From an uncultured Alphaproteobacteria bacterium (lineage in GTDB: Bacteria; Pseudomonadota; Alphaproteobacteria; CAAHEQ01; UBA3637), in NCBI GenBank assembly GCA_944392555.1, contig CALXWZ010000001.1, forward strand, positions 65,810 to 129,809: DNA of 64,000 bases. Reading direction: 5' to 3'. Below, piece after piece: positions 36,690-63,776 of the stretch (positions are counted from its first letter, which is position 1; every line of letters starts with the position of its first letter). The notes under the pieces were generated by a model. That model had not been told where the DNA came from, made no database searches, and saw nothing but the letters and a program-made list of their open reading frames with translations. A program made the position numbers and the translations under genes.

Positions 36690-36854
36690 TTGCAAAGAAG
36701 GGGAAGCTCGGATAGAATAAAGAGTATGAGGTGATGAAATAAGCGCTTCATCCGAGAGATTAACGATACGAGATAAGTATCAAAACGTGAGTTAACTCAT
36801 TCGGGGAATGGGAAGACGGGGCTTTCGGTAAATATAAAACAAAAGGAGAGAAAC
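36690..36854 (+). promoter_or_regulatory. Promoter TTGCAA-17-TAGAAT plus conserved structured 5' leader of about 130 nt, for pilin-like gene 1
   Basis: Block duplicated at 37981-38145. Hairpin ATGAGGTG..CGCTTCAT. 12-bp palindrome TGAGTTAACTCA. Conserved GGGGAATGGGAAGACGGGGCTTTCGG. AAAGGAGAG ribosome-binding site. Confidence 0.55.
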
Positions 36855-37328
36855 ATGAAAAGAACAAATGAATCAGGCCGTTCAATGGTTGAAATGCTCG
36901 GCGTTTTGGCTATTATCGGTGTTTTATCGGTTGGTGGTATTGCCGGTTACACAATGGCAATGAACCGCTATCGTTCAAACGAAATTATTGATATGGCAAA
37001 CAAATTGGCCGTTGTTGCTTTCTCGGCTCGTGAAACATACGCTGCAATGCACAATGGTGATTCCAATGGCTTTACACCGCCTTCGTTGACTACATCTGGC
37101 TTGTATACAAGTGATAAAATCAATGGTGCAACGTTTACGGCATTAACAAATCCGGCATCTTTCTTTACGGATACAGAATGCACAGACGTAGCAGATACAA
37201 CTGAATCTGCACGGAGTGTTAAAATGGAAATCAATTTTGATACAGAAAATGTCTGCAAAGCCGCTGCTTCAACATTGGGCACAACATGTGCAAGCAACAA
37301 AGTTACATTCTGCTCACGCAGCAGCTGA
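36855..37328 (+). CDS. Type IV pilin-like protein 1 (non-canonical prepilin leader)
   Basis: MKRTNESG|RSMVEMLGVLAIIGVLSVGGIAGY has Glu at +5 and a hydrophobic helix. C-terminal Cys pair CKAA..FCSR. Confidence 0.65.
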   Translation: MKRTNESGRSMVEMLGVLAIIGVLSVGGIAGYTMAMNRYRSNEIIDMANKLAVVAFSARETYAAMHNGDSNGFTPPSLTTSGLYTSDKINGATFTALTNPASFFTDTECTDVADTTESARSVKMEINFDTENVCKAAASTLGTTCASNKVTFCSRSS

Positions 37329-37980: not shown

Positions 37981-38145
37981 TTGCAAACTTAAAAATTATT
38001 TAATAGAATAATAAGTATGAAGTGATGAAAAAGGCACTTCATCCGAAAGAATAACGATGCGAAATAAACATCAAAACGGGAGTTGACTCATTCGGGGAAT
38101 GGGAAGACGGGGCTTTCGGGAAACGAAAAAGAAAAGGAGAGAAAC
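37981..38145 (+). promoter_or_regulatory. Promoter TTGCAA-17-TAGAAT plus conserved structured 5' leader, for pilin-like gene 2
   Basis: Second copy of the 36690-36854 block. Hairpin ATGAAGTG..CACTTCAT. Confidence 0.55.
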
Positions 38146-38622
38146 ATGAAAAGAACAAATGAATCAGGCCGTTCAATGGTTGAAATGCTCGGCGTTTTAG
38201 CGATTATCGGTGTTTTATCGGTTGGTGGTATTGCGGGTTACACAATGGCAATGAACCGCTATCGTTCCAACGAAATTATTGATATGGCAAACAAATTGGC
38301 CGTTGTTGCTTTCTCGGCGCGTGAAACATATATGGCAATGCACAACGGTGATACTATACCAACATCAGATGTGCCGGATTTAGCGTCATCAGGGTTGTAT
38401 ACGAGCAGTGTAATTAATGGAGCAACATTTGAAACTCCTACGTTTTATTCTGATACAACCTGTACGACTCCAATAGTTGCTAGTACCAAAAATCAATCTG
38501 CACGGAGTATTAAAATTGTAATCAATTTTAATGGAAATGACAACGTATGCAAAGCTGCAGCTTCAACACTAGGAGAAGATTGTTCTGGCGGTAAGGTAGA
38601 GTTTTGCTCACGCGCCAGCTAA
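38146..38622 (+). CDS. Type IV pilin-like protein 2
   Basis: Start MKRTNESGRSMVEML at 38146, which is the second Met of track ORF 38083-38622. First 70 aa about 95% identical to gene 1. Variable centre. Cys pair CKAAASTLGEDCSGGKVEFCSRAS. Confidence 0.65.
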   Translation: MKRTNESGRSMVEMLGVLAIIGVLSVGGIAGYTMAMNRYRSNEIIDMANKLAVVAFSARETYMAMHNGDTIPTSDVPDLASSGLYTSSVINGATFETPTFYSDTTCTTPIVASTKNQSARSIKIVINFNGNDNVCKAAASTLGEDCSGGKVEFCSRAS

Positions 38623-38718: not shown

Positions 38719-38947
38719 ACTCGCCTGCATGCACTGACCTTATCGCTTTCACGATGATGATTTTTCTATCCCCCTTTTTTACCTTGATTTCTGAATAAAT
38801 TAAAAAAGTTATCAATATGATATAAAAAAACTTGAACTTTTAATTTGAAAACAGTATAATGAACTATCACCGATATCGTCAGTTTGAATCGCCAGCCTTT
38901 AAAAGGCTGATTCGGGTGCGGGTCGGGGTTAGATAAAAGGAATTAAA

Positions 38948-39412
38948 ATGCAAAAAACAAATGAATCAGGTCGCTCAATGGTGGAAATGCTAGCCGTTTT
39001 GGCGATTATTGCCGTCCTGTCCATTGGCGGAACGCTGGGTTATTTGCTCGGTATGCGTCGCTATCGGGCTGATTTGGTTTTAGATGTTGCTTCAAAATAT
39101 GCTTCAACTGTCTATATGCAGTTTCAATCCTATAAAGCCAAGCATGGTGGCTCAGTTGTCGGGTTCACACCGGTAACGCTTGCCAATTCCGGCGTGAGTA
39201 TTGCGAATATGGATTCAATTAACGGCGTCGGGATTGCCTTAAATACGGCATATAGTGGTGGAAAAGAGTGTGTTGGCGGTATTTGTGAAAATGGGGTAAG
39301 TATCCTAATGTCGTTCCCGCAAGAGCAGTTGGAAATATGCAAAACAATTACGATTATGTTAAGCGTGGATAATACATGCCCCGATTTGGTTCGCTTCTTT
39401 CCGCAAAGTTAG
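38948..39412 (+). CDS. Type IV pilin-like protein 3 (divergent)
   Basis: MQKTNESGRSMVEMLAVLAIIAVLSIGGTLGY. C-terminal Cys-rich region CVGGICENG..CKT..C. Confidence 0.6.
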   Translation: MQKTNESGRSMVEMLAVLAIIAVLSIGGTLGYLLGMRRYRADLVLDVASKYASTVYMQFQSYKAKHGGSVVGFTPVTLANSGVSIANMDSINGVGIALNTAYSGGKECVGGICENGVSILMSFPQEQLEICKTITIMLSVDNTCPDLVRFFPQS

Positions 39413-39784: not shown

Positions 39785-41509
39785 TCATGCGTATGATTTT
39801 GTGGACTTGAATGATGAAGCAATGCAATGTTTTCTCATATAGGAATCGTATTGTTTTTTCTGTTCGGGAAATTTCTTGAAATAGGCCGATAATTCGGCAT
39901 TACTTTGATATTTCCCGCCATACCGCATAAACACCTCGGCATTCCGCGGATTAAACAAAATGGCATACGTGACAGGTGTAATCCCGCTTGCATTGGGCCG
40001 ATTGAGCAAAGCTTGAACGGCTTTTTTATCGGAATACGTGAGTAATTGCTTGACCATTTGATTCATCACGGCTGAATCGTATATATTATCGGCTGCCAGA
40101 TGAAAAACAGTTTCCCCTGCCTGAGTATTGCCGAAACTTCCCGTCAATAGTGTGGGGTTCGCCCCTTGCTTCATTAAATTGGCAACAACGCCTACATGCC
40201 CGTGTTCAACGGCGGCTTCAAGTAATCGCGCTCCCGTTTCTCCTGTACTACGCGCTGTTTTGGTTTTAAAGCCTTGTGTGTTAATTTCACTGCCGAAGTT
40301 GAGCCAACTGCTCATACGTTCCAATTCCGCAGGTGTTTTATTCGGTGTGTAAAGAGCGTCCATCATTGCTTGATAGGCCGTTTTCGGCGACATAACAGGT
40401 GTTTTCCCGCCGGCTTTTACCCCTATGCCCGCCAGTTCCGCAGGTTTCGGTGTTTTGGGCAATGTTAAGCCACGCACGGCCGGAATAGGCGGTGCAACCA
40501 TTTCTTTTCCGCGGGGGCTTATCGGTTGCTCTAACACCACGCCTTCCAACAACTCCTTGATTTGATACATCACCTCAATTTGCGCGGCACTGCGTTGAGG
40601 ATCCGTACATGTACCAAAAAAGTGCAACCTACTTGCTTCGCGCGCTCTTGGAAATCCGGTTGATGTGTCCAGAGGAATAAATTGTTTATTTACTTCCGCA
40701 TCAAACCGCTTTTTTTCGGCAGTTGAAATATGTTCGGGTGACCAGTGTATCCCTTCCGCAATTTTTCCGCCGATGAGCCGTTCATTATTTTCTTTGCGAA
40801 TATAGGGACTCATTATCCGAACAAAATCATTGATCATTTCAGGCGTCGGTTTCTTCTCAGGTGTTGCAAAATACACATTCAACGTATCTATGCGATTTGT
40901 TGTGTGGCAATCTACCGGAGATTTATATTTCGCCCCGTATTTTTCGGCAAACGCATCCATCGCGTCTACCCATTCAGGCGTGCAATTAACATTTGCCGTT
41001 ATCCGAAAAGAGGTTGCTAATTTGCTCATTCTGTTTTGCTGATAAGATTCCGATGTTCTCCATAACCAAGGGTTATCATCGTCACCGGTTGAGGCCTCCA
41101 CTTTCCCCGTGTTCGTTAACATCTTATGATAGAATGAATCTTCTTGTGCAATGCTGGGAAGGGTGGAAAAATGAGCATGTCTTAAGAATTGATAGTAAGA
41201 ATCACTTAAATGTATCAACACGGCATTCGTTAGCGGAAGAGGCGGAAACTCGTCGGCATTTGTCAACGAAAAAACACTCTTTGGCTGAAACTTCATTTCA
41301 ATCGGTGCGGAATTTGTTTTCTCGGATTTCGCCTGTTGCGAAATATGCTTCGTAAGGATTTGCACGATATACGAGGCATAGGCCGATTTTTCGTTCTCCT
41401 CACCCATCTGTCTATGCAATTTTTTCCAAAAGCGAAGATAGTTGGCATCTTCCGCCCTGTGAGAATATGTTTTAAGCCCCAGTTCATTAAACAAATCTAT
41501 TAAGTGCAT
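39785..41509 (-). CDS. Ankyrin-repeat protein without a signal peptide (candidate effector)
   Basis: 574 aa. N-terminal ~130 aa carry ANK-like repeats (GARLLEAAVEHGHVGVVANLMKQGANP ... ETVFHLAA). Large unknown C-terminal domain. Last gene of a 3-gene minus-strand operon. Confidence 0.55.
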   Translation of the reverse strand: MHLIDLFNELGLKTYSHRAEDANYLRFWKKLHRQMGEENEKSAYASYIVQILTKHISQQAKSEKTNSAPIEMKFQPKSVFSLTNADEFPPLPLTNAVLIHLSDSYYQFLRHAHFSTLPSIAQEDSFYHKMLTNTGKVEASTGDDDNPWLWRTSESYQQNRMSKLATSFRITANVNCTPEWVDAMDAFAEKYGAKYKSPVDCHTTNRIDTLNVYFATPEKKPTPEMINDFVRIMSPYIRKENNERLIGGKIAEGIHWSPEHISTAEKKRFDAEVNKQFIPLDTSTGFPRAREASRLHFFGTCTDPQRSAAQIEVMYQIKELLEGVVLEQPISPRGKEMVAPPIPAVRGLTLPKTPKPAELAGIGVKAGGKTPVMSPKTAYQAMMDALYTPNKTPAELERMSSWLNFGSEINTQGFKTKTARSTGETGARLLEAAVEHGHVGVVANLMKQGANPTLLTGSFGNTQAGETVFHLAADNIYDSAVMNQMVKQLLTYSDKKAVQALLNRPNASGITPVTYAILFNPRNAEVFMRYGGKYQSNAELSAYFKKFPEQKKQYDSYMRKHCIASSFKSTKSYA

Positions 41510-48085: not shown

Positions 48086-48420
48086 TCACAGTTTTTTTAT
48101 CATGTATTGTATATAGTCATTATTTTGAGGCTCTCCTTTAAAGCAACATTGGCTATAAATTCCAACACCGGCATGTGTAACAACTAATATATTTTTATTT
48201 TGAGCTTTAGGTAAAAGATCATTCCAAAAATCATATATTCTTTTTCTGAATACAGGTAACGGTTCAATATTAAATCTTTGCTCGTTTGGATCTGAGAAAT
48301 CTATAACAACAGATCCTTTTTGAACTCCTTCTAAAGTTCCATTGTAACGTTCAATCAGGCGAGTATCTATAATAATATGACCTTTATGGATAAATTGAGT
48401 CGTTTTATAAGCTCTTTTTA
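48086..48420 (-). pseudogene. Start-less open frame: possible 3' fragment of a histidine-phosphatase-family gene
   Basis: About 110-codon frame ending ..NILVVTHAGVGIYSQ..KKL*. No in-frame start before the upstream TAA. Lies next to repeat copy A. Confidence 0.3.
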
Positions 48421-48510
48421 ATGGGCATAAAAATACAAAATAGTTAAATAACAGATGAGGAAAACAAGGGCGGATAATGGGCTTTTATTGGGCTATAAAA
48501 AAATAAAAAA

Positions 48511-48536
48511 AGCGGAAATATGCACTTCCGCTTTTC
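48511..48536. terminator. Bidirectional hairpin terminator
   Basis: AGCGGAA-N8-TTCCGCT, with an A-run on one side and a T-run on the other. Confidence 0.55.
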
Positions 48537-48540
48537 GCGT

Positions 48541-48740
48541 TGGTCGGAATGGCGGGATTTATGCGTGTGATACCACACTTACCCGCTCGCGTTGCTCGGG
48601 GCCGCCTTCGGCATTAGTTTGCCGCTTTTTCGGCGTTCTTCGCCCGCCTGCGACTGCACTCGAACCCGCTTCCCCGCGGGTTCAATCCCCGCCCGATTAT
48701 TTATAAAAAAAGCCACCCAAACGGTGGCTCTTTTTTTAAA
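48541..48740. repeat. 200-bp repeat copy A, seeded with the tRNA-Pro 3' end
   Basis: Begins tggtcggaatggcgggattt, identical to the 3' 20 nt of tRNA-Pro at 54124. About 97% identical to copies B and C. Contains the GCCACCnAAACGGTGGC hairpin. Confidence 0.85.
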
Positions 48741-48906
48741 TGGTCGTCATTGCCAGAGATAATCTGGAAAAATATACCAGCTAAAACAATAGATTTAATA
48801 AAGCAATTTTATTATTGTTTTACAATAAGTTATTTAAATCAAGGAATGATGTGTGCAACATTCCAAATCCTGTCAAACTGTGGTGAACCATATTATTTGG
48901 AAGGCT

Positions 48907-50628
48907 TTAAAAAGGTAAAAAATTTAACTCTAGTTGTTCTGTTTCTGTAGATAACGAATTAGTGAAAATAAATTTTTTTATTTCTTCATAACTATTTTGT
49001 TGTCTATGGTAGAGGTTTCTATTTTTATTTTTTATATCAATAAATTCATTAATTTTATAAACGATCTCATCTACAGCTCGTGAAATTTTATTTTTTTCAA
49101 ATAAAAAATTTCCAATAGATATATTATTTTTTTTAAAAACTAATTCTAAAATCAAACGATTCCAATGTATTATAAATTTATTACGCTCATCTTTTAGTAT
49201 ATTTTCTATTTCTTTATCCACTAACAACTTTATTTCACAAAGAGCTAAAAATAATGGAAGATTTTTTAAAGATAATAACTCAAGGTATAATTTATCATTA
49301 CTCCATAATTCACCTTTGTTATTTTTAACGATTCTCGAATACCCATAAAAGCAACCTAAAGCAATCATTAAGTCTTCAAAAGAAATATTACTTATATTTT
49401 CAGAATATTCTCCAGTTCTATATGTATAGTAAAAATTATTTTTAATAAAAAACTTTTTAATTTCATCATGTATCGGATCTAGGGTTCTTAAATCCATTGC
49501 TGATACCGAATTTTGAGAGTTATTAAATCTGGTTATTTTAAATGATAAACCATTCTCAATAGGTTGCAATGAAGTTTCAATTATTCTTATTTGAACTAAA
49601 GCATCATCAGTAATATTTTCAACAGATGCACAAGACAATACTGTTTGAGCACCATTTACAATACTTAAATTTTCAACTTTTAAGGTTTTTAAATTATTTG
49701 ACGATGCACTACTTGCTAAAACTTTTATGTTATCACAAACAAATGTAATGCCGTTATTGTAATAAATAAATTTATCAGCTTCTTCAATCAATGTCTCTTT
49801 AATTTTTTTATTAATAGCTGAATTGTCAACTAAAAATCTAATATTTTTTGAAAATAGATTGTTTTGATATTTTTGATACAATTGTTTTAAGTATGATATT
49901 TTGATACATCCAACGTACATTTTTATTGGAGTGTCTCTATAAAAATATCTATCTAATGTGAAAATTTCTGTAACATTTCTGGGTTGTATCTCATATTCGA
50001 AAATTTTTTCATTATTGATTATTATATACTTTTCAATAAATTCACCATATTCCGAATTATTTAAAATTTCTTCTGTTAAAAAAGAGGTAATTTCATTAGG
50101 TATTTGTTGTCCAAAAAATACAATTACAGGTACAATTTTAAGTTCGTCATCTAATAATATTTTTTGTAAATCGTATTTTTTATTTTGTATGTGCTGATTT
50201 AAAGTATCTAAAGAATCATCTAAAGATAATATGGCATGAATACCCATTTTTATATCTTTGATATTATCTCTTGAAATTGAATTAGAAAATTTTGTTTGAA
50301 ACAAATAAAGATTATGATTAAAATAATATATAGCATCAATTCCCATATCATTTGTATCATCTGTTATGTGTAATGCAGCCTCATTTTCGGGAATATGAAA
50401 TTCTTTCATTAAAATATAGGCAGTTAGTGCTCTTGAAAGGAAATTACCATACTCTTGCTTTTTGAAATTTTCTAAAAAATAACCATTAAATATACTATTT
50501 AATTTTTGAGCCAAATTCTTTTTTTGACTTTTAAATTTAATATTAGAAAGAGATTTTACTTCTGTTTCTATAAGTTGTGCGATGCTTTCCAAACCTTTAT
50601 ATTGCACTAAATCAGATAAAGTTTTCAC
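48907..50628 (-). CDS. Hypothetical protein co-transcribed with the RM system (possible AIPR-like abortive-infection protein)
   Basis: 573 aa, about 30% GC. Start overlaps the restriction endonuclease stop. The AIPR assignment rests on context and size only. Confidence 0.4.
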   Translation of the reverse strand: MKTLSDLVQYKGLESIAQLIETEVKSLSNIKFKSQKKNLAQKLNSIFNGYFLENFKKQEYGNFLSRALTAYILMKEFHIPENEAALHITDDTNDMGIDAIYYFNHNLYLFQTKFSNSISRDNIKDIKMGIHAILSLDDSLDTLNQHIQNKKYDLQKILLDDELKIVPVIVFFGQQIPNEITSFLTEEILNNSEYGEFIEKYIIINNEKIFEYEIQPRNVTEIFTLDRYFYRDTPIKMYVGCIKISYLKQLYQKYQNNLFSKNIRFLVDNSAINKKIKETLIEEADKFIYYNNGITFVCDNIKVLASSASSNNLKTLKVENLSIVNGAQTVLSCASVENITDDALVQIRIIETSLQPIENGLSFKITRFNNSQNSVSAMDLRTLDPIHDEIKKFFIKNNFYYTYRTGEYSENISNISFEDLMIALGCFYGYSRIVKNNKGELWSNDKLYLELLSLKNLPLFLALCEIKLLVDKEIENILKDERNKFIIHWNRLILELVFKKNNISIGNFLFEKNKISRAVDEIVYKINEFIDIKNKNRNLYHRQQNSYEEIKKFIFTNSLSTETEQLELNFLPF

Positions 50629-51521
50629 TTCAACAGCTCCTCTAAAACACCCTTTTGAATCATATCAAGATTAATGATATAATCTATTGTATTAAACGTA
50701 TCTCGTAATGGGCGCTGTGTTTTCTTCCATCCATAACCATCTGTTACCCAAATAAACTGATGTCCATCATTAGTCCATTGATGATAAATATCTGCATATT
50801 CTCCAGCAGTCGATTTTAATTTGGAACCACCACCACCATAAAAGTTCGTTTCAATTAAATATAGCTTATTAGGGGTATTAATTGCAAAATCTATTCTCTT
50901 TGAAGATTTTGTTACTGTAATATTTTTCCCCCACTTTGACTTGATTTTATCAGCAGTTGCTTGAGCAATATATTCATATCCGTTTCGTTCACAGATATCT
51001 TTTACAAAAAATTCAACTAAATTTTCCATAGATGTTCCGCTGCGATTTTTACGTCCATTAGAATCTAATCCAACTTCAACACCAATAAAATAATCAGGGA
51101 TAGATTTAATGTTGCGATTTGATAGTAATTCTAAAAATCCACTTTCTTGCAAGAATAAAACACCATCTTCTGCTGACATAGATTTTGTAAAATCAAAGCG
51201 CTTAATATCAAAATTTTGAGGATTTGTCAATAGTGCGATTTTTTTATCTCTCTCCGCTAAAAGAGCCGGAACTATGCCAATAACTTTAGGATATTCCTGT
51301 AACAATTTTAACGCAGCTTGTTCAACATCTTCTTTGCCTATCAAAGTATTTAATAAATTTAATGAGGTTTCAACATCCTGATAATTTTTAATTACTTTTT
51401 TCCAATTTACAAAATAATCGAATGATTTAATAGTTTCTTTCAGAGAAGATATAAGATAAGCAAAAACCTCATCTTCTTTATTACAACTTAAAATCTTTTT
51501 ATATGCTGGATGTTGTTTCAT
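50625..51521 (-). CDS. Type II restriction endonuclease, DpnII/MboI-like (GATC)
   Basis: 298 aa. Sits downstream of the Dam-like and DpnA-like methyltransferases, in the dpnM-dpnA-dpnB order of the S. pneumoniae DpnII cassette. Confidence 0.55.
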   Translation of the reverse strand: MKQHPAYKKILSCNKEDEVFAYLISSLKETIKSFDYFVNWKKVIKNYQDVETSLNLLNTLIGKEDVEQAALKLLQEYPKVIGIVPALLAERDKKIALLTNPQNFDIKRFDFTKSMSAEDGVLFLQESGFLELLSNRNIKSIPDYFIGVEVGLDSNGRKNRSGTSMENLVEFFVKDICERNGYEYIAQATADKIKSKWGKNITVTKSSKRIDFAINTPNKLYLIETNFYGGGGSKLKSTAGEYADIYHQWTNDGHQFIWVTDGYGWKKTQRPLRDTFNTIDYIINLDMIQKGVLEELLK

Positions 51522-52294
51522 TTATTGCCTCCTTTTATAGCAGAAAGTCTTTTTTCTGCAAGCTCTACAAACTTTTTTTCTTTTTCAATACCAACAAATT
51601 TTCTGTTATGTTTTAATGCCGCAACTCCAGTTGTTGCACTACCCATAAAGGGATCTAAAATTAAATCTCCTTCATTTGTTGATGCTAAAATAATTCTTTC
51701 TAATAAATCCAACGGTTTTTGGGTTGGATGTTTACCAAAAGTCTTTTCGCTTTTCTTTGGCGTTCCAATAGCCCAAACACTTCTCATCTGCGTATTAGGC
51801 TTTTTAATAAAGTCAGACGAAAAATCTCCGTTTTTCATGAGCTCATAATTAAAGGTATGCTTTGTTTTTTTATCTTTTCTTGCCCAAATCAATGTTTCAT
51901 GACTGGCAGTAAAATACCTGCAACACATATTAGGACTAGCATTTGGTTTAAACCAAGAAATATCGTTTAATATGTGATACCCCAATAATTGCATCGCAAA
52001 ACCACAAGAATAAATACTGTGATAAGTACCGGAAACCCAAAGTGTTCCGTTTTTCTTTAAAACTCTTTTACAAGCAGATAGCCATCTTTTATGAAATTCG
52101 AAATCCTGTTCAAATCCTTGACTTTCATCCCATTTGCCTTTGTTGACGGAAACGACTTTTCCGTTTTGACAGGTAATACCTCCGTTTGATAACATATATG
52201 GCGGATCTGCAAAAATCATATCAAATGTATTTTCTGGGATTTCTTCCAGAATTTTTAAACAATCATCATGATATAATCGATAGTTTTTCATCAT
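51518..52294 (-). CDS. N6-adenine / N4-cytosine DNA methyltransferase (beta class, DpnA-like)
   Basis: DPPY motif early (FADPPYM). C-terminal FxGxG (DPFMGSATTG). Confidence 0.75.
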   Translation of the reverse strand: MMKNYRLYHDDCLKILEEIPENTFDMIFADPPYMLSNGGITCQNGKVVSVNKGKWDESQGFEQDFEFHKRWLSACKRVLKKNGTLWVSGTYHSIYSCGFAMQLLGYHILNDISWFKPNASPNMCCRYFTASHETLIWARKDKKTKHTFNYELMKNGDFSSDFIKKPNTQMRSVWAIGTPKKSEKTFGKHPTQKPLDLLERIILASTNEGDLILDPFMGSATTGVAALKHNRKFVGIEKEKKFVELAEKRLSAIKGGNK

Positions 52295-53226
52295 ACGCCG
52301 TAATTTGTAATGAGTATTTCTCTGATTTCACCACGTCCATCCGAATTCGCATTAATCAAACGTTTTGCCAAAATACGATAAATGTTGTAATCATGATATA
52401 AATCATCAAAAAATGGATCAGGTCCAACATTTGTTGGATCTGAATTGCTTAACATTTGCAGGGCACCCAATTTATGTGCTTGCTCAAAAACATTTTTCAA
52501 TCGGATTTGTTCATTATCATCAAAAGTTTCTACGGCATAAGTTGTAAAAGAAGAATCCTTTAACGGACGATATGGAGGATCGTAATAGATAAATGTATTG
52601 TTATCTGCAAAATCCAATGCTTTAGCAAAATCTGCCTGTAAAATTATTGCTTTACTTAATGCTTTTGAAACAGCTATTAAATTTTCTCTATCCAGAATGC
52701 GAGGATTCTTATAACTTCCCATCGGGACATTAAATAGGCCTTTGCTGTTAACCCTGAACAATCCATTAAAACAAGTTCTGTTTAAGAAAACAGTTAATGC
52801 AGCACGTCTGATAAACGATAAAGAATAATGGTTAGCATCTATTTTTTTATCAAACGAATTATATTCCTCACGCATTTGATAGTAAAATTCTTTCCTATCA
52901 GTTGATGAAAAATAAGATATTTGTAAGCGTTCTAGTTCATCAATCAATTCCAACACATTATTTTTGATAACGTTATAAAGAATGACTAATTCCGGATTAA
53001 TATCAAACAAATAAGCTTCTTCAAAATAGTATGAATTAGATATATCAAAAAAAACAGCCCCACCGCCAACAAATGGCTCAATATATTTTTTGATTGCACC
53101 ACAACGAAGTTTATTCGGTAGTTTTGGAGATAGTTGAGGCAATAACATACCCTTACCACCTGCCCATTTTAAAACAGGAGATGCAAAGTTTATTTCATTA
53201 TTCTTTTGTAATGCTAATTCTACCAT
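52291..53226 (-). CDS. Dam-family N6-adenine DNA methyltransferase (DpnM-like)
   Basis: KWAGGK ... EPFVGGGAVFF ... DPPY. Confidence 0.8.
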   Translation of the reverse strand: MVELALQKNNEINFASPVLKWAGGKGMLLPQLSPKLPNKLRCGAIKKYIEPFVGGGAVFFDISNSYYFEEAYLFDINPELVILYNVIKNNVLELIDELERLQISYFSSTDRKEFYYQMREEYNSFDKKIDANHYSLSFIRRAALTVFLNRTCFNGLFRVNSKGLFNVPMGSYKNPRILDRENLIAVSKALSKAIILQADFAKALDFADNNTFIYYDPPYRPLKDSSFTTYAVETFDDNEQIRLKNVFEQAHKLGALQMLSNSDPTNVGPDPFFDDLYHDYNIYRILAKRLINANSDGRGEIREILITNYGV

Positions 53227-53542
53227 ATTATACCTTGTTCGACTATTTTAACGATAAAGAAAAGAAATAGCAACTTTTTTTGATAAATATTCAAACTTTT
53301 TTATGTTTATATAACTTTTTTTTCAGACCATGTGTGCAAGTTGTTAAAAATGTAAAGCTCTTGTAAAATAAGGCTTTAAGAGGTGTACGAAAATTGTAGT
53401 ATCGGCTTCTGGTTTCTAAACTAACCCCTGTTTGATAGGATTTGGAAAGATGCACACGTGCTTAAATAAATAGAGATAATTTTAATAAAAATAACTGGAC
53501 TTTTTTTATTTTATAGACATAGCTATAAATATGGAGGTCATC

Positions 53543-53689
53543 ATGACATTGATAGAAGAACTTGTTAAGACAATTTTACCAGATTTTTTAAAGTATTTGG
53601 ATATGCTTGAAGAAGAAAAAAATGTTCCAGAAAAGGAAATTAAGTTAAAAGATGGAAAAGCACTAATAATTTACCCCAAAAAAGAATAA
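53543..53689 (+). CDS. Small hypothetical ORF (48 aa)
   Basis: GGAGG ribosome-binding site 6 nt upstream. MTLIEELVKTILPDFLKYLDMLEEEKN.. Confidence 0.3.
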   Translation: MTLIEELVKTILPDFLKYLDMLEEEKNVPEKEIKLKDGKALIIYPKKE

Positions 53690-53723
53690 GATAGTATGTG
53701 AGCTTACATACTATCTTATGTAT

Positions 53724-53923
53724 TGGTCGGAATGGCGGGATTTATGCGTGTGATACCACACTTACCCGCTCGCGTTGCTCGGGGCCGCCTTCGGCGTTAG
53801 TTTGTTGCTTTTTCGGCGTTCTTCGCCCGCCGGCGACTGCACTCGAACCCGCTTCCCCGCGCGTTCAATCCCCGCCCGATTATTTATAAAAAAAGCCACC
53901 TAAACGGTGGCTCTTTCTCTAAA
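53724..53923. repeat. 200-bp repeat copy B
   Basis: Directly tandem with copy C. Confidence 0.85.
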
Positions 53924-54123
53924 TGGTCGGAATGGCGGGATTTATGCGTGTGATACCACACTTACCCGCTCGCGTTGCTCGGGGTCGCCTTCGGCGTTAG
54001 TTTGTCGCTTGTTCGGCGTTCTTCGCCCGCCGGCGACTGCACTCGAACCCGCTTCCCCGCGCGTTCAATCCCCGCCCGATTATTTATAAAAAAAGCCACC
54101 TAAACGGTGGCTCTTTCTCTAAA
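53924..54123. repeat. 200-bp repeat copy C, abutting the tRNA-Pro 3' end
   Basis: Ends exactly where tRNA-Pro begins (54124). Same leading 20 nt as the tRNA. Confidence 0.85.
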
Positions 54124-54200
54124 TGGTCGGAATGGCGGGATTTGAACCCGCGGCCACACGCCCCCCAGACGTGTGCGCTACCAGGCTGCGCTACATTCCG
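54124..54200 (-). tRNA. tRNA-Pro (anticodon GGG)
   Basis: The reverse complement folds as CGGAATG-TA-GCGC..GCGC-A-CACGT-CUGGGGG-GCGUG..GCGGG-TTCAAAT-CCCGC-CATTCCG-ACCA. Confidence 0.85.
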
Positions 54201-54445
54201 TTTCGCTTCTACCCACCTTTCTACCCGATTTTTTTTGATTTTGCAAGAATTATTTTCTTTTTCGCTTACCTTTTTTTTGCGCCCTTTGCCCTTTCTTGCT
54301 TATTTACTACTGTTTTACCTTTGACTTTACTTCGCTCGTTCGCTGATATATCTGCCAAAATATAACCTTTTTCCTTTTTCTTTTTCTTTTATTTACTTTC
54401 TAGTTCGTGCCCTTTCATTATTTCGTTGACTTTTAGGGTTTTTAA

Positions 54446-56650: not shown

Positions 56651-56725
56651 GGGTGTGTAGCTCAGCGGGAGAGCATTACCTTCACACGGTAGGGGTCACA
56701 GGTTCAATCCCTGTCACACCCACCA
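56651..56725 (+). tRNA. tRNA-Val (anticodon CAC)
   Basis: GGGTGTG-TA-GCTC..GAGC-A-TTACC-TTCACAC-GGTAG-GGGTC-ACAGG-TTCAATC-CCTGT-CACACCC-ACCA. Confidence 0.85.
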
Positions 56726-56749
56726 TTTTCAGAATGTTGTTTAAAATAT

Positions 56750-56774
56750 CCGCCCTTTTGAGGGTGGTTTTTTT
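56750..56774 (+). terminator. Terminator after tRNA-Val
   Basis: CCGCCCT-TTTG-AGGGTGG followed by T7. Confidence 0.65.
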
Positions 56775-56910
56775 GTGCTTAAATGAAGCTCACCTTTCTG
56801 ATACACCGATTCGCTTTAAAATCCTTTCTCATTATGATACATTTTGCCCCGATACGGAATGAAATATTCGAATCCAATATAACATAATCTTCTAAATGGA
56901 AAAAACATGA

Positions 56911-56933
56911 AAAAAACGCCCCGAAAGGCGTTT
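56911..56933 (-). terminator. Terminator after tRNA-Arg
   Basis: AAACGCC-CCGAAA-GGCGTTT, with T7 on the minus strand. Confidence 0.65.
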
Positions 56934-56937
56934 AATA

Positions 56938-57014
56938 TGGCGATCCCGGCAAGATTCGAACTTGCGACCCACAGCTTAGAAGGCTGTTGCTCTATCCAGC
57001 TGAGCTACGGGACC
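56938..57014 (-). tRNA. tRNA-Arg (anticodon TCT)
   Basis: The reverse complement folds as GGTCCCG-TA-GCTC..GAGC-A-ACAGC-CTTCTAA-GCTGT..GCAAG-TTCGAAT-CTTGC-CGGGATC-GCCA. Confidence 0.85.
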
Positions 57015-59847: not shown

Positions 59848-61290
59848 CTAACTGCGTTCTTTTTTGATGAAAGCGCGCGCCATTGTATTGAGTTGTTTGT
59901 TTTGTGCGGAAACATTGAGATTCGCTTTTTGCATTTCCATGCGCTTCATAAAAAATTGTTTGAATTCAGGAGAAAAGTTTTCATCCAAATAATCAACAGG
60001 TTGTTTGCCTTCCGAGTTTTGCCATACCAGATTTGCGCCTTTTTGAATTAACAACGCTGCCAAGCGTTCATCTTTTCGCTTCATCGCATAAAAAATGCCC
60101 GGTTCCGTAATGCCGTTCGGATATGAATCCAGTTCCGTAATCGTCCAGGGATAATAGTGCACTGCTTCATTCGGATTGACACCTTTCCCTAAAAACATGC
60201 GGATAATCGGGAGTTCACCCCGTCGGATAGCAACGCTGTAAGGCGTATCCCCGTCAATATCTCGGCGACACATTGTTTCTTTTGTTGCCAGTTGGGCGCA
60301 TAAATCTTCTCCGTAAGAATAAGCCGCATAATAGAGTGCGTTTCTGCCCAAAAAGTCAACATCGGCAATGTTGATCTTTTGGTTATCGGTAAAGCGGATT
60401 GTATTTAGGCTATCATATCCGCTACCGAGTAAAAGCCGTGCGCAACTTTCATAGTTGGCTTGTTCCGAAAACGGAATCGGTTGCGAAAGCAGATAAGTCA
60501 ATATCGGCATTTGTTCGCCACCCTTTTTATAAATAACGTTCGGAATACGCAATCCGGCAGTAACTAAATATCTAAGACAGTTTATGCTCCCGTATTTTAA
60601 TACTTTTCGCAATGCAACCGGACAACCTTTTTCTTTTTGATTCGTATATTCTTGCCAATTTGTCGGCATGGTGTCCAAGTGAGCTCCATTTCTATGGAAA
60701 TAAGCCATCATATCAACATCATCTCCGCGTGCCGACATGGAAAGCGGTGTAATATCCAAATCGCTCAATAAATCAACCGATGCGCCGAATTTAAGTAAAA
60801 CGTCGGCCATGCGTTTATCGTGCCGACGCGCAGCCAAACTGAGCGGTGTTACCTGTCGCCAACGGTTATAATCTTTGCCTTGACTATCATATCCGCCTTT
60901 CAAGCGGGTGTAAGTATGGATATTCGGATTCGCTCCTTTGCGCAACAAGGCAGCCACAACCAATCGGCTGTTTCTGACCATTGCCACCCCCAACGGCGAC
61001 ATCCCTTGATCATCTTCTTGATTCACATTGATTTCGGGAGAGCGGAGTAATCTTTGAATCATGGCTCTGCCGATTTTAGTATTGATATAGCAAGCAGCAA
61101 TCAACGGCGTCAATCCGTAAGAGCCGGGTTCATTAACATCTTCCGTTCCAATCAATGTTTCAAAGCGCTGGTAATCTTGCTTTTGAATTGCCTTGATGAG
61201 CGGTGTATCTTCCTTGCTTGACGGTTCAAGTGAACTTTGAATAGCAATACCGCCGTTGACGTATGTTTTGGCACCTTTATCTTGTTGCAT
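59848..61290 (-). CDS. Ankyrin-repeat protein (at least 6 ANK repeats), no signal peptide
   Basis: Repeated G.TPL..A .. LL..GANPN units along the 480 aa. Confidence 0.75.
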   Translation of the reverse strand: MQQDKGAKTYVNGGIAIQSSLEPSSKEDTPLIKAIQKQDYQRFETLIGTEDVNEPGSYGLTPLIAACYINTKIGRAMIQRLLRSPEINVNQEDDQGMSPLGVAMVRNSRLVVAALLRKGANPNIHTYTRLKGGYDSQGKDYNRWRQVTPLSLAARRHDKRMADVLLKFGASVDLLSDLDITPLSMSARGDDVDMMAYFHRNGAHLDTMPTNWQEYTNQKEKGCPVALRKVLKYGSINCLRYLVTAGLRIPNVIYKKGGEQMPILTYLLSQPIPFSEQANYESCARLLLGSGYDSLNTIRFTDNQKINIADVDFLGRNALYYAAYSYGEDLCAQLATKETMCRRDIDGDTPYSVAIRRGELPIIRMFLGKGVNPNEAVHYYPWTITELDSYPNGITEPGIFYAMKRKDERLAALLIQKGANLVWQNSEGKQPVDYLDENFSPEFKQFFMKRMEMQKANLNVSAQNKQLNTMARAFIKKERS

Positions 61291-61368: not shown

Positions 61369-62529
61369 TTATTTCGTCAAATTATGAATTTCGCCCATAA
61401 TGGCTTCCCCTTTTTGGGCATCAAAATAAATGCCGAGGTTGCCTTGCGCCAGTTGTTCGGCAATTTTCCCGAATACCGTATAGCGCCACCCTGTTAGAAA
61501 CGGGGCCTGTTTTTCGCGCACGTAATTTGCCAAGTCATCAGATGAAGCAATCAGGGAGGGTGCAATTTCTTCCCTATCGGCAACAATGGTAAGAGCAAAT
61601 TTTAAAATGCTTAACAAGTTCTTTTCGGCCACGCTCAAAGCACGCTCCGATTCGATATGCGGTAAATCGGAAGACTTGCATTTCAATGCTTCGTTGATGA
61701 TTTTAATAATGGCGTTGGCGTATGAGGAATTTTCAAAATTACTCGGAATACCGCGCATTTCCTTTAATTGCTCCGTATTTTGGGGATGCACGAGTGCCAA
61801 TTCCGCCAGTAATTCATCTTTTACCAAGTATCGGCGCGGACGATTCTTTGATTTTGCCAAATTCTCGCGCCATAAATAAAGTTTTTGATAAATCAAAATC
61901 GCAAGCGGTTTTGAAAAAGGGTAATGAATTTTGCGATATATTTGTTCGGGTGTTGGATTATAGGTTTCCGGATTTGTTAAAACAGCCAGTTCTTCTTGTA
62001 TCCAAGATAAGCGCTTTGTTTCTTCCAAACGCGCCGTTATTTTTTCATATACATCTCGCAAATATGTAACGTCGCATAATCCGTATTGAATCTGTTCTTC
62101 GGAAAGCGGGCGTCTTGCCCAATTCGTGCAACGCATACTTTTATCCAATCTAACGCCCAACAGTGTTTGAACTAACTGTCCGTAGGCCACATTCTCGCCG
62201 AATCCGCAAACCATTGCGCCGATTTGCGTATCAAAAACGGGGGAGGGAATTTCACCGCTTAAATGCAGAAAAATCTCAATATCCTGTCTGCCGGCATGAA
62301 ATACTTTTACAACATTCTTATTTTGAAATAACTCAAACAAAGCCGAAAGATTTATGTTCGGAGCCAATGGATCAATGCAATAAGCCTCATCTCGTGATGC
62401 GAGTTGAATAAGGCATAAATCGGGGTAATATGTTTTTTCGCGGATAAATTCCGTATCTACCGTCACATAGGGATATGTTGCAAATCGCCGACATACCTCT
62501 TGCAATTCATCTGTCGTTTCAATCATCAT
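61369..62529 (-). CDS. rnd: Ribonuclease D
   Basis: DTEFIREKTYYPDLCLIQLA. HRDC-like C-terminus. 386 aa. Confidence 0.85.
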   Translation of the reverse strand: MMIETTDELQEVCRRFATYPYVTVDTEFIREKTYYPDLCLIQLASRDEAYCIDPLAPNINLSALFELFQNKNVVKVFHAGRQDIEIFLHLSGEIPSPVFDTQIGAMVCGFGENVAYGQLVQTLLGVRLDKSMRCTNWARRPLSEEQIQYGLCDVTYLRDVYEKITARLEETKRLSWIQEELAVLTNPETYNPTPEQIYRKIHYPFSKPLAILIYQKLYLWRENLAKSKNRPRRYLVKDELLAELALVHPQNTEQLKEMRGIPSNFENSSYANAIIKIINEALKCKSSDLPHIESERALSVAEKNLLSILKFALTIVADREEIAPSLIASSDDLANYVREKQAPFLTGWRYTVFGKIAEQLAQGNLGIYFDAQKGEAIMGEIHNLTK

Positions 62530-62600
62530 GGGAATGTTTTTACCTTTTTTTTACTTGATTTGCAAGCAATTATTGCGTATAGCAAGTATTAAGGAGTTAA

Positions 62601-63776
62601 ATGATGAACAAAAAAGAGCTTATCACAAAAGATCTGGTTGAATTATTTAATATTTTTGATGATAATGTTCGATTGGTCGGGGGTTGCGTGCGCGATTATC
62701 TACTCGGCAAAAAGGTAAATGATTATGATTTGGCAACACCGCTTTGTCCAAAAACGGTTATTTCTCTTTTAAAACAAAATCATATTCCCGTTTACCCAAC
62801 AGGGTTGAAACACGGAACGGTAACGGCGGTATATAAAGGTATTCCTTATGAAATCACAACGTTGCGACGCGATATTTCGTCCGATGGACGGCATGCCGAT
62901 GTTGCGTTTGTGGATTCGTATGCAACAGATGCGCACAGGCGCGATTTCACCGTTAATGCGCTTTATATGGATAAAGCAGGCAATATTAGCGATTATACGA
63001 ACGGTTTGAAAGATTTGTCCGCGCGTAGAATCCGATTTATCGGCGAAGCGAATGCACGCGTGCAAGAAGACTTTTTGCGTATTTTGCGCTATTTTAGATT
63101 TTTGGCATTGTTCGGAACGAAAAGGATTGATGAAGAATCGTTATCGGCATGCCGAATCCATAAAAACGGCTTGTGCAGTATCTCGGTAGAACGAATCCGT
63201 GCGGAGATGATGAAGTTGCTCATGGGCAGATATGTGATAAATTCATTAAATTTGATGCAGGAAAACGGCGTGTTATCCGTTATTTTACCGAAAGCCGACG
63301 TAGGGCGCTTGGAGGCATTTTTGAAAAGTTATCCGCGTGCTGATAGTTTAATGCGTTTATCGGCATTAGTTGATTCTCCGAAAGACGTTGCGTGGAAATG
63401 GAGTAAAGCGGAGCGAAAGCAACTCGGCTTATACGGTGCAACGGTTCAAATCGGGAAAACGGAAGCCGAAAACCGCTATTTATTATGGAAAATCGGAAAG
63501 CCGGCTTATTTATTTCATTTACATATATTTCAACTAAATCATTCACTATCGGAATTAGAATTTCAAAAGTTCAAAAAAATCAAGATGCCTGTTTTTCCGA
63601 TTCGGGGAAGTGATTTATATGATTTGGGGTGGCGAGGTGCCGAAATTCACCGACAAATGCAACGAGCGGAAAAATTTTGGGTAGAGTTGAATTTTAGTCG
63701 GAAAAAAAGACTTGTCATTGAAAAACTTTTGTCTTATAATGAGAAAAAACCAGATGAGGGGAAGGATAAAAAATGA
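62601..63776 (+). CDS. cca: CCA-adding tRNA nucleotidyltransferase / poly(A) polymerase family
   Basis: LVGGCVRDYLLGKKVNDYDLAT ... RRDFTVNAL. Confidence 0.8.
   Translation: MMNKKELITKDLVELFNIFDDNVRLVGGCVRDYLLGKKVNDYDLATPLCPKTVISLLKQNHIPVYPTGLKHGTVTAVYKGIPYEITTLRRDISSDGRHADVAFVDSYATDAHRRDFTVNALYMDKAGNISDYTNGLKDLSARRIRFIGEANARVQEDFLRILRYFRFLALFGTKRIDEESLSACRIHKNGLCSISVERIRAEMMKLLMGRYVINSLNLMQENGVLSVILPKADVGRLEAFLKSYPRADSLMRLSALVDSPKDVAWKWSKAERKQLGLYGATVQIGKTEAENRYLLWKIGKPAYLFHLHIFQLNHSLSELEFQKFKKIKMPVFPIRGSDLYDLGWRGAEIHRQMQRAEKFWVELNFSRKKRLVIEKLLSYNEKKPDEGKDKK

Follow-up and report, generated by a model that had tools for sequence, protein, structure and literature searches.

Repeat units ending in a tRNA tail and a restriction–modification island at the tRNA-Pro(GGG) gene of an uncultured alphaproteobacterium

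How does the 3′ end of a tRNA gene come to be repeated in tandem beside the gene, and once more on the far side of a defence island? The question is raised by a 64,000-nucleotide (nt) stretch of DNA, hereafter the window, from an uncultured alphaproteobacterium (assembly GCA_944392555.1, contig CALXWZ010000001.1, positions 65,810–129,809). An intact tRNA-Pro(GGG) gene is followed there by units C and B, two tandem copies of a gene-free 200-nt unit; a restriction–modification (RM) island lies between B and a third copy, unit A. The answer we favour, at a probability of about 0.55, is that the units are complete, cargo-less, non-autonomous integrative elements accreted at the tRNA gene, much as cis-mobilizable elements (CIMEs) accrete in streptococci, and that the defence island is a second module placed at a unit boundary.

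Anatomy of the tRNA-Pro locus

The repeated part of the tRNA gene, which we call the tail, consists of its last 20 nt (54124–54143), from T-loop base A57 to CCA, and it terminates each unit at the 3′ end on the tRNA-sense (minus) strand. On that strand there are exactly four occurrences of the 20-mer AAATCCCGCCATTCCGACCA, one in the tRNA and one in each unit; shuffled sequences contain none. A repeat search returned a single three-copy family (48540–48753, 53723–53936 and 53923–54136, at spacings of 5183 and 200 nt), and a 17-mer internal to the unit is found nowhere in the window outside the three units. The repeat is real, non-random and biologically meaningful. It runs 13 nt longer at copy A because a degenerate tail precedes that copy on the tRNA-sense strand.

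Each unit is built, in the tRNA direction, from a terminator hairpin, a GC-rich body that we call X, and the tail (Table 1). Unit boundaries in the window read ACCA followed by TTTAGAG, the copied block starts where CGCAT meets AAATCCCGCCATTCCGACCA, and the motif TATAAA(T) stands immediately upstream of X. In unit A, X contains a 26-nt block, GGCGGCCCCGAGCAACGCGAGCGGGT (48581–48606), and a perfect 10-6-10 palindrome (48660–48685). On the tRNA-sense strand, the locus as a whole reads tRNA, unit C, unit B, a different terminator, the island, an adaptor closed by a degenerate tail, unit A, a third terminator and a pseudogene. The GC content of the units is 56%, against 40% for the window and 22–34% for the island between A and B.

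Most of a preliminary description of this locus, made from the sequence, is confirmed at this level. It had reported three ~200-bp units sharing the 20-nt tRNA-Pro tail, two of them in tandem at the tRNA, a terminator-like hairpin in every unit, an AT-rich island with a DpnII-like RM system and an extra gene, and a start-less gene fragment outside copy A. The repeat search and the four exact 20-mers bear out the units, and the hairpin is present in A, B and C. The low GC content of the island agrees, Pfam and PADLOC recover the RM system and identify the extra gene as a 573-amino-acid (aa) AIPR/AbiU-like protein, and the fragment is, by its motifs, a decayed histidine-phosphatase-like gene. 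Two statements needed adjustment. The units had been put at ~97% identity; the identity is indeed high, and the actual values range from 95.5% (A–C) through 96.0% (A–B) to 98.5% (B–C). The T-arm-like segment GCGGG-TTCAATC-CCCGC, on the plus strand, is intact in copy A and carries a mismatch in B and C.

The cargo between units B and A, ~5 kb in length, comprises a DpnII-type RM operon and an AbiU/AIPR abortive-infection gene. The three RM genes lie in one operon, to which PADLOC gives the labels REase_II and MTase_II, and by their gene families they are predicted to form a type II RM system of the DpnII type. An AT-rich adaptor, absent like its degenerate tail from the preliminary description, separates this cargo from unit A and is closed by that tail (48741–48760, 13 of 20 positions matching, ending in GGCAATGACGACCA). 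The four-gene operon is framed exactly by the arms of a 34-nt inverted repeat (85% complementary), which may act as a recombination site, an operator or a promoter. Deleting 48741–53723 in silico would restore a perfect three-unit array; the insertion point of the island thus falls precisely on a unit boundary, between ACCA and the unit terminator. Its two junctions have CGACCA in common, plus the degenerate tail.

Table 1 Features of the tRNA-Pro(GGG) locus, listed in the tRNA direction (window positions)
Feature	Position	Strand	Details
Intact tRNA-Pro(GGG)	54124–54200	minus	ARAGORN and Rfam, 63.8 bits
Unit C	53924–54123	minus	Terminator hairpin 54094–54112 (bidirectional); GC-rich body X ~53944–54078; 20-nt tRNA tail 53924–53943
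Unit B	53724–53923	minus	Terminator hairpin 53894–53912; tail 53724–53743
Hairpin terminator, 14 bp and T-run	53686–53719	minus	Directly after unit B tail; tRNA-proximal end of cargo island; differs from unit terminators
48-aa open reading frame (ORF)	53543–53689	plus	GGAGG upstream; no family match; found only in this context
Inverted repeat, right arm	53424–53457		Within ~100-nt inverted partial copy of adaptor
D12-class N6-adenine methyltransferase (DpnM-like)	52291–53226	minus	PF02086, 4e-56
N6_N4 methyltransferase (DpnA-like)	51518–52294	minus	PF01555, 7e-61
DpnII-family type II restriction endonuclease	50625–51521	minus	PF04556, 3e-95
AIPR-domain, AbiU-like abortive-infection protein, 573 aa	48907–50628	minus	Pfam and PADLOC
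AT-rich adaptor, ~170 nt	48741–48906	minus	Conserved distal end of cargo island; contains left inverted-repeat arm 48851–48884
Unit A	48541–48740	minus	Terminator hairpin 48711–48729; tail 48541–48560
Different terminator	48507–48536	minus	Directly after unit A tail; third terminator type at the locus
Histidine-phosphatase-like pseudogene, 5′-truncated	48086–48441	minus	Identified by eye from motifs

Relatives at tRNA-Pro and tRNA-Glu

Exact-pattern scans supplied a small but informative set of relatives, and four lineages of X are available. Two of the relatives are strains of one other species. The first, locus L030 (an extension of L022), belongs to a metagenome-assembled genome (MAG) labelled 'uncultured Alphaproteobacteria bacterium'; its unit and adaptor are 89% identical to those of the window over 368 nt, and its cargo and chromosomal flanks differ from the window's. 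The order there is tRNA-Pro(GGG), terminator, type IIG RM gene, adaptor with degenerate tail, unit terminator, X and an 18-nt decayed tail, with the cargo and adaptor bounded by a 17-nt direct repeat, CGACCATT(G/T)AGAAAAAG. In the second strain, L031, tRNA-Pro and a terminator are followed by just one X unit, which ends in the same decayed tail; cargo is lacking. The flanks of the two strains are 99.2–99.3% identical, and the cargo is therefore polymorphic for presence and absence at the same site in close relatives. Between the last base of the tRNA and the middle of X the strains are only ~62% identical, as against 95% in the 3′ part of X: the divergent segment begins exactly at the tRNA 3′ end and stops inside X. 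An island-free relative with tRNA-Pro and no or one unit had been expected in the preliminary description, and L031 has exactly one. Among strains of the species to which the window belongs, none without cargo was recovered.

A further locus, L023, is on a metagenome contig of 45% GC from a different organism. Here a tRNA-Glu(CTC) gene is followed by a terminator, a ~105-nt relative of X (X′), an exact copy of the tRNA-Glu tail and, at the contig end, the same terminator again. The tail is identical to that of the adjacent tRNA-Glu(CTC), and the boundary reads CGAAT followed by AAATCCCGTTAGGGTCGCCA. X′ and X share GGCGGCCCCGAGCAACGCGAGCGGGT, which is invariant in all X lineages, and a junction at which AT is followed by AAATCCCG. 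The two tRNA genes have the T-arm sequence GGGTTCAAATCCCG in common. In tRNA-Pro (window and L031) as in tRNA-Glu (L023), the copied block starts at A57, the first base of AAAT after TTC in the T-loop; in the window and L023 it runs to CCA.

A unit without an island in L031 and a relative at another tRNA in L023 mean that the units are independent of the RM island; they pre-exist the cargo. The earlier proposal that the 200-bp units are att (attachment site) duplications of that island fails on both grounds, and also because the island has its own, shorter junction. Since the same right end and X flank a type IIG RM gene in another species, the frame formed by the tRNA and X would be a landing pad on which one defence cassette can replace another.

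The outer flank of the array adds a further element. The terminator that follows the tail of unit A resembles the one directly 3′ of tRNA-Pro in L030, which makes it a candidate for the displaced native terminator of the tRNA. In L003, a strain of the window's species, the phosphatase-like gene extends further and is frameshifted, and past ~48441 L003 has 367 nt (L003 1250–1616) that are absent from the entire window. To the right of that point the window differs from L003, as at a rearrangement boundary; the two strains differ by a rearrangement or deletion that ends ~100 nt outside copy A.

Attempts to widen the set of relatives gave little more. Synteny searches through homologues of the 405-aa and YqeK-like flank genes (~30 loci) revealed no tRNA-Pro/X locus outside L030–L033 and no autonomous parent. 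An exact 23-mer of the invariant X block in the metagenome loci L024 (5759–5781) and L025 (552–574) falls inside a TROVE/vWA (Ro60-like) coding region of an organism of 67% GC; we judge it coincidental.

Origin of the units and competing explanations

Taken together, the shared T-loop boundary, tails that match the local tRNA, a terminator in every unit, a displaced, native-like terminator and an occupied-site polymorphism form a signature of site-specific integration at tRNA genes. Signatures of mobile DNA are also present: a composition unlike that of the host, defence cargo and assemblies that break within the repeat all count towards an integrative element. The preliminary view of a tRNA 3′-end integration hotspot with tail repeats, left by a non-autonomous element or by serial integration, is thereby supported; an island at a tRNA gene was the right kind of explanation, with the roles of its parts misassigned, since the units are independent of the island and the island is docked at a unit boundary.

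We infer that integration is site-specific, with the crossover in the T-loop and mobilization in trans. A unit would consist of the last 20 nt of the tRNA, by which the gene would be restored once insertion has occurred, a terminator serving the restored tRNA, and the ~135-nt GC-rich arm X, whose 3′ ~60 nt would be the conserved recombination (att) arm. Insertion would take place by site-specific recombination in the T-loop of tRNA genes with the T-arm GGGTTCAAATCCCG, tRNA-Pro(GGG) here and tRNA-Glu(CTC) elsewhere. Each insertion would join X to the displaced tRNA tail and push older material outward, and repeated insertion or unit duplication would yield the order tRNA, C, B, island, A, old terminator on the tRNA-sense strand. 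The 5-kb DpnII and AbiU island would be a second module with a conserved 170-nt right end, accreted through its own short junction CGACCA, and the block of adaptor and X would move between species with different cargo. The integrase would be supplied in trans, as for CIMEs; alternatively, the elements may by now be fixed in place, with exchange occurring through homologous recombination between the tRNA and X.

Several points weigh against such accretion. No integrase or other recombinase was found in the island, in the L030 and L031 loci ±10 kb or among the 20 largest plausible ORFs of the window, and nothing in any of these matches the Phage_integrase family; the absence of an integrase from the island, noted in the preliminary description, holds for the ORFs examined. 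That description had also suggested looking for a cognate integrase elsewhere. No autonomous relative with X beside an integrase emerged from scans, requiring exact 20–26-mers, of one genome per species, JGI metagenomes, IMG/VR, phages and plasmids. Most att arms are AT-rich, but the GC content of X is 56%; a circle of 200 bp would make a very small recombination substrate; and the sequences after the tail, which would form the P′ arm, differ between elements. In L030 and L031 the distal tail, CTATTGACCA, is not a working tRNA-Pro end, so that a simple empty site cannot be reconstructed there, and only four X lineages are known. As no copy encodes a recombinase, the elements would be non-autonomous, as CIMEs are.

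Other routes to a recombinase or a parent element were equally unproductive. A blastn search for distant matches of the unit in phage and plasmid collections found nothing, as did a protein search with the stop-free translation of X, aimed at spurious ORF calls elsewhere. Five patterns run against viral contigs yielded only chance 17–23-mers or matches within phage coding sequence. The 48-aa ORF is unsupported as an excisionase, being acidic and without a family match.

Homologous recombination could in principle have built the locus without any recombinase of its own. The tRNA and X would then be conserved flanks, the units would have multiplied by unequal crossing-over or slippage between 20-nt tails, and the cassettes would have been swapped by homologous recombination after DNA uptake. 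No recombinase was found, B and C are near-identical tandem copies, and the L030/L031 replacement is flanked on both sides by identical sequence (the tRNA and the 3′ part of X), all of which such a history would accommodate; the pneumococcal DpnI and DpnII systems, alternative cassettes exchanged through homologous flanks, offer a precedent. We nevertheless consider it unlikely, because it leaves unexplained the same T-loop start in two different tRNAs, the match of each tail to its local tRNA, the different, native-like terminator beyond unit A and a GC-rich block of 26–60 nt that is invariant across organisms. A transposon bounded by the 34-nt inverted repeats would account for the cargo alone. 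The repeat does bracket exactly the four-gene operon, and its right arm lies within an inverted partial copy of the adaptor; however, the island genes include no transposase, no target-site duplication is visible, the L030 island has one copy of the motif and no inverted partner, conservation with L030 runs past the motif on both sides, and the segment so bounded has been seen so far only in the window, with no copies at other sites. This makes a transposon highly improbable, and we also set aside, for want of an L030 partner and a target-site duplication, a terminal-inverted-repeat transposon or a miniature inverted-repeat transposable element as the class of the locus.

A small RNA gene would be an answer of a different kind: X and the tail would form a ~150-nt RNA, transcribed in the tRNA direction, with a tRNA-like 3′ end, tandemly duplicated with a terminator for each copy and possibly linked to defence or tRNA metabolism. 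X is GC-rich amid AT-rich DNA, a terminator-like hairpin follows every copy and TATAAA(T) lies just upstream, as expected of such a gene. A few of the substitutions are compatible with pairing on the tRNA-sense strand alone, by way of G–U pairs (CGCC/GGUG in L031, U–G in L030), and the hairpin before the tail differs in sequence (GUGUG/CACAC in the window, GGC/GCC in L023). Yet between 47500 and 55000 only the tRNA scores against Rfam at E ≤ 10, sub-threshold matches to Phe_leader, isrD and similar families being just the terminator hairpin. The RNAalifold consensus of six copies has an unfavourable covariation term on both strands (+2.67 sense, +3.34 antisense), with 3 of 37 consensus pairs compensatory and several broken, in a test whose power is low with only four lineages. 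The folding z-scores of the window copy, better than shuffles on both strands (−2.5 sense and about equal, −3.1, antisense), derive largely from the 10-6-10 palindrome; values in the relatives are −0.57 (L031) and +0.04 (L023), and overall these two lie between −0.6 and +0.2, not significant. The acceptor part of the tail has decayed in L030 and L031 while X is conserved, the 5′ half differs by ~38% between strains of one species, and no convincing −35/−10 promoter was reported upstream of X. The small RNA gene offered as an alternative in the preliminary description is accordingly left without Rfam, covariation or folding support, and we judge it quite unlikely. What is conserved is the primary sequence of the 3′ ~60 nt of X, which fits a protein-binding DNA site better than a fold.

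Some further RNA-related candidates were examined and rejected. ARAGORN reports no tmRNA in the window, including two-piece and permuted forms. A tRNA-like cloverleaf made of X and the tail was rejected by inspection, as the acceptor strand has no 5′ partner. A plus-strand primer-binding site complementary to the tRNA 3′ end was rejected too: no reverse transcriptase lies anywhere close by, and the shared sequence is accounted for by its context at the DNA level.

Known systems and the surrounding region

The locus falls within a class already known, that of att-flanked elements without an integrase that have accreted at a tRNA gene, and differs from the described cases. In the streptococcal ICESt1/ICESt3 family, CIMEs are att-flanked, and genes for integration and transfer are missing from them or have been lost; they accumulate as tandem arrays where the target gene has its 3′ end. 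Newer elements enter an att site of residents, and composites can be mobile as a whole (PMC5704250). The three units and the island resemble CIMEs in being bounded by tails without a recombinase. The CIMEs described are, however, decayed integrative and conjugative or integrative and mobilizable elements, whereas the smallest units here are 200 nt long and gene-free, no integrase-bearing parent was found, and the GC-rich arm has been conserved at two different tRNA targets.

Islands and prophages that target tRNA genes offer a second comparison. The mycobacteriophage Ms6 has its attB in a T-loop, and small changes in the attP core can retarget integration to another tRNA with a similar T-loop (PMC1762012). 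In Ms6 and the integrase 'sublocation' classes, as here, the tRNA is intact and the segment from T-loop to CCA is duplicated at the far end; unlike them, the present elements carry neither integrase nor excisionase and form tandem arrays, and their recombination is one that we infer. Prochlorococcus tycheposons and tRNA-anchored islands show serial integration, partial tRNA copies between elements, degenerate remnants and adaptive cargo (10.1101/2020.12.28.424599). The pile-up of elements and partial tRNA copies beside the tRNA is common to both; tycheposons have their own tyrosine recombinase and replication genes, of which the elements here have neither, and the conserved non-coding arm X has no described counterpart.

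Integron arrays share with this locus tandem short units that end in a recombination-type repeat, and cargo without a recombinase of its own that enters at unit boundaries. They differ in having attC sites and IntI acting in trans; here no intI is present among the ORFs examined and there is no attI, the boundaries (ACCA followed by TTTAGAG) lack the GTTRRRY core, a tRNA serves as the anchor and no conserved fold is seen, and an integron cassette array was rejected. A bolder possibility is that X is a gene-free mobile att module of ~200 bp, acting perhaps in a single-stranded, folded form, that brings a recombinase, either the host's or one supplied in trans, to tRNA T-loops, copies the tail each time and serves as a portable dock for adaptor-matched defence cassettes, as a tRNA-anchored analogue of integron cassettes with the integrase encoded elsewhere; we regard this as improbable. 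In Streptococcus pneumoniae, the DpnII cassette consists of dpnM, dpnA and dpnB and alternates with other RM genes at a fixed site. Compared by gene families, the operon here has the same three-gene make-up (D12 methylase, N6_N4 methylase and DpnII endonuclease) and is likewise a cassette alternating with other RM genes at one site, but its locus is tRNA-anchored, flanked by X and joined to an AbiU/AIPR gene.

If our preferred reading of the units as accreted elements is right, they represent an extreme endpoint of mobile-element reduction, in which only an attachment arm, a tRNA-restoring tail and a terminator are left, and an element so reduced can still maintain itself, form tandem copies and occur in more than one species and at two tRNA targets. 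The tRNA, adaptor and X would make up a compact frame in which uncultured alphaproteobacteria exchange anti-phage cassettes; a type II RM system, a type IIG RM gene and an Abi protein have been seen in it. Short-read assemblies are interrupted by the repeat at precisely this locus, so that MAGs probably under-report the defence cargo found there. With the invariant block GGCGGCCCCGAGCAACGCGAGCGGGT, both hotspots of this type and the missing recombinase could be searched for.

The neighbourhood of the tRNA gene has features of its own. The plus strand of the ~240 nt between tRNA-Pro and a divergent glycosyltransferase gene (54201–54445) is strongly biased towards pyrimidines (AT skew −0.40, GC skew −0.28). 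CTTTT/CCTTT motifs recur in it, and such a sequence is unusual upstream of a tRNA gene. The tRNA-Val(CAC) and tRNA-Arg(TCT) genes, 2.5 kb from tRNA-Pro (56651–57014), have no X-like unit. A few kilobases further (61369–63776) lie an RNase D-like gene (DNA_pol_A_exo1 and HRDC) and a gene of the poly(A) polymerase/CCA-adding family. Both families are known for tRNA 3′-end processing, and their proximity is probably a coincidence.

Elsewhere in the window, an ORF at 59848–61290 encodes an ankyrin-repeat protein, 39785–41509 has only a sub-threshold Ank_2 match, and several large ORFs have no Pfam match; ankyrin-repeat and unmatched large ORFs may suggest a host-associated lifestyle for this alphaproteobacterium. 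Finally, a separate repeat family, unrelated to X, is represented by two 300-nt copies (36712–37011 and 38003–38302; 92% identical, 1291 nt apart) and by a third, partial copy (38945–39066; 122 nt, 72%) upstream of a region encoding large proteins of unknown function and ankyrin-repeat proteins.

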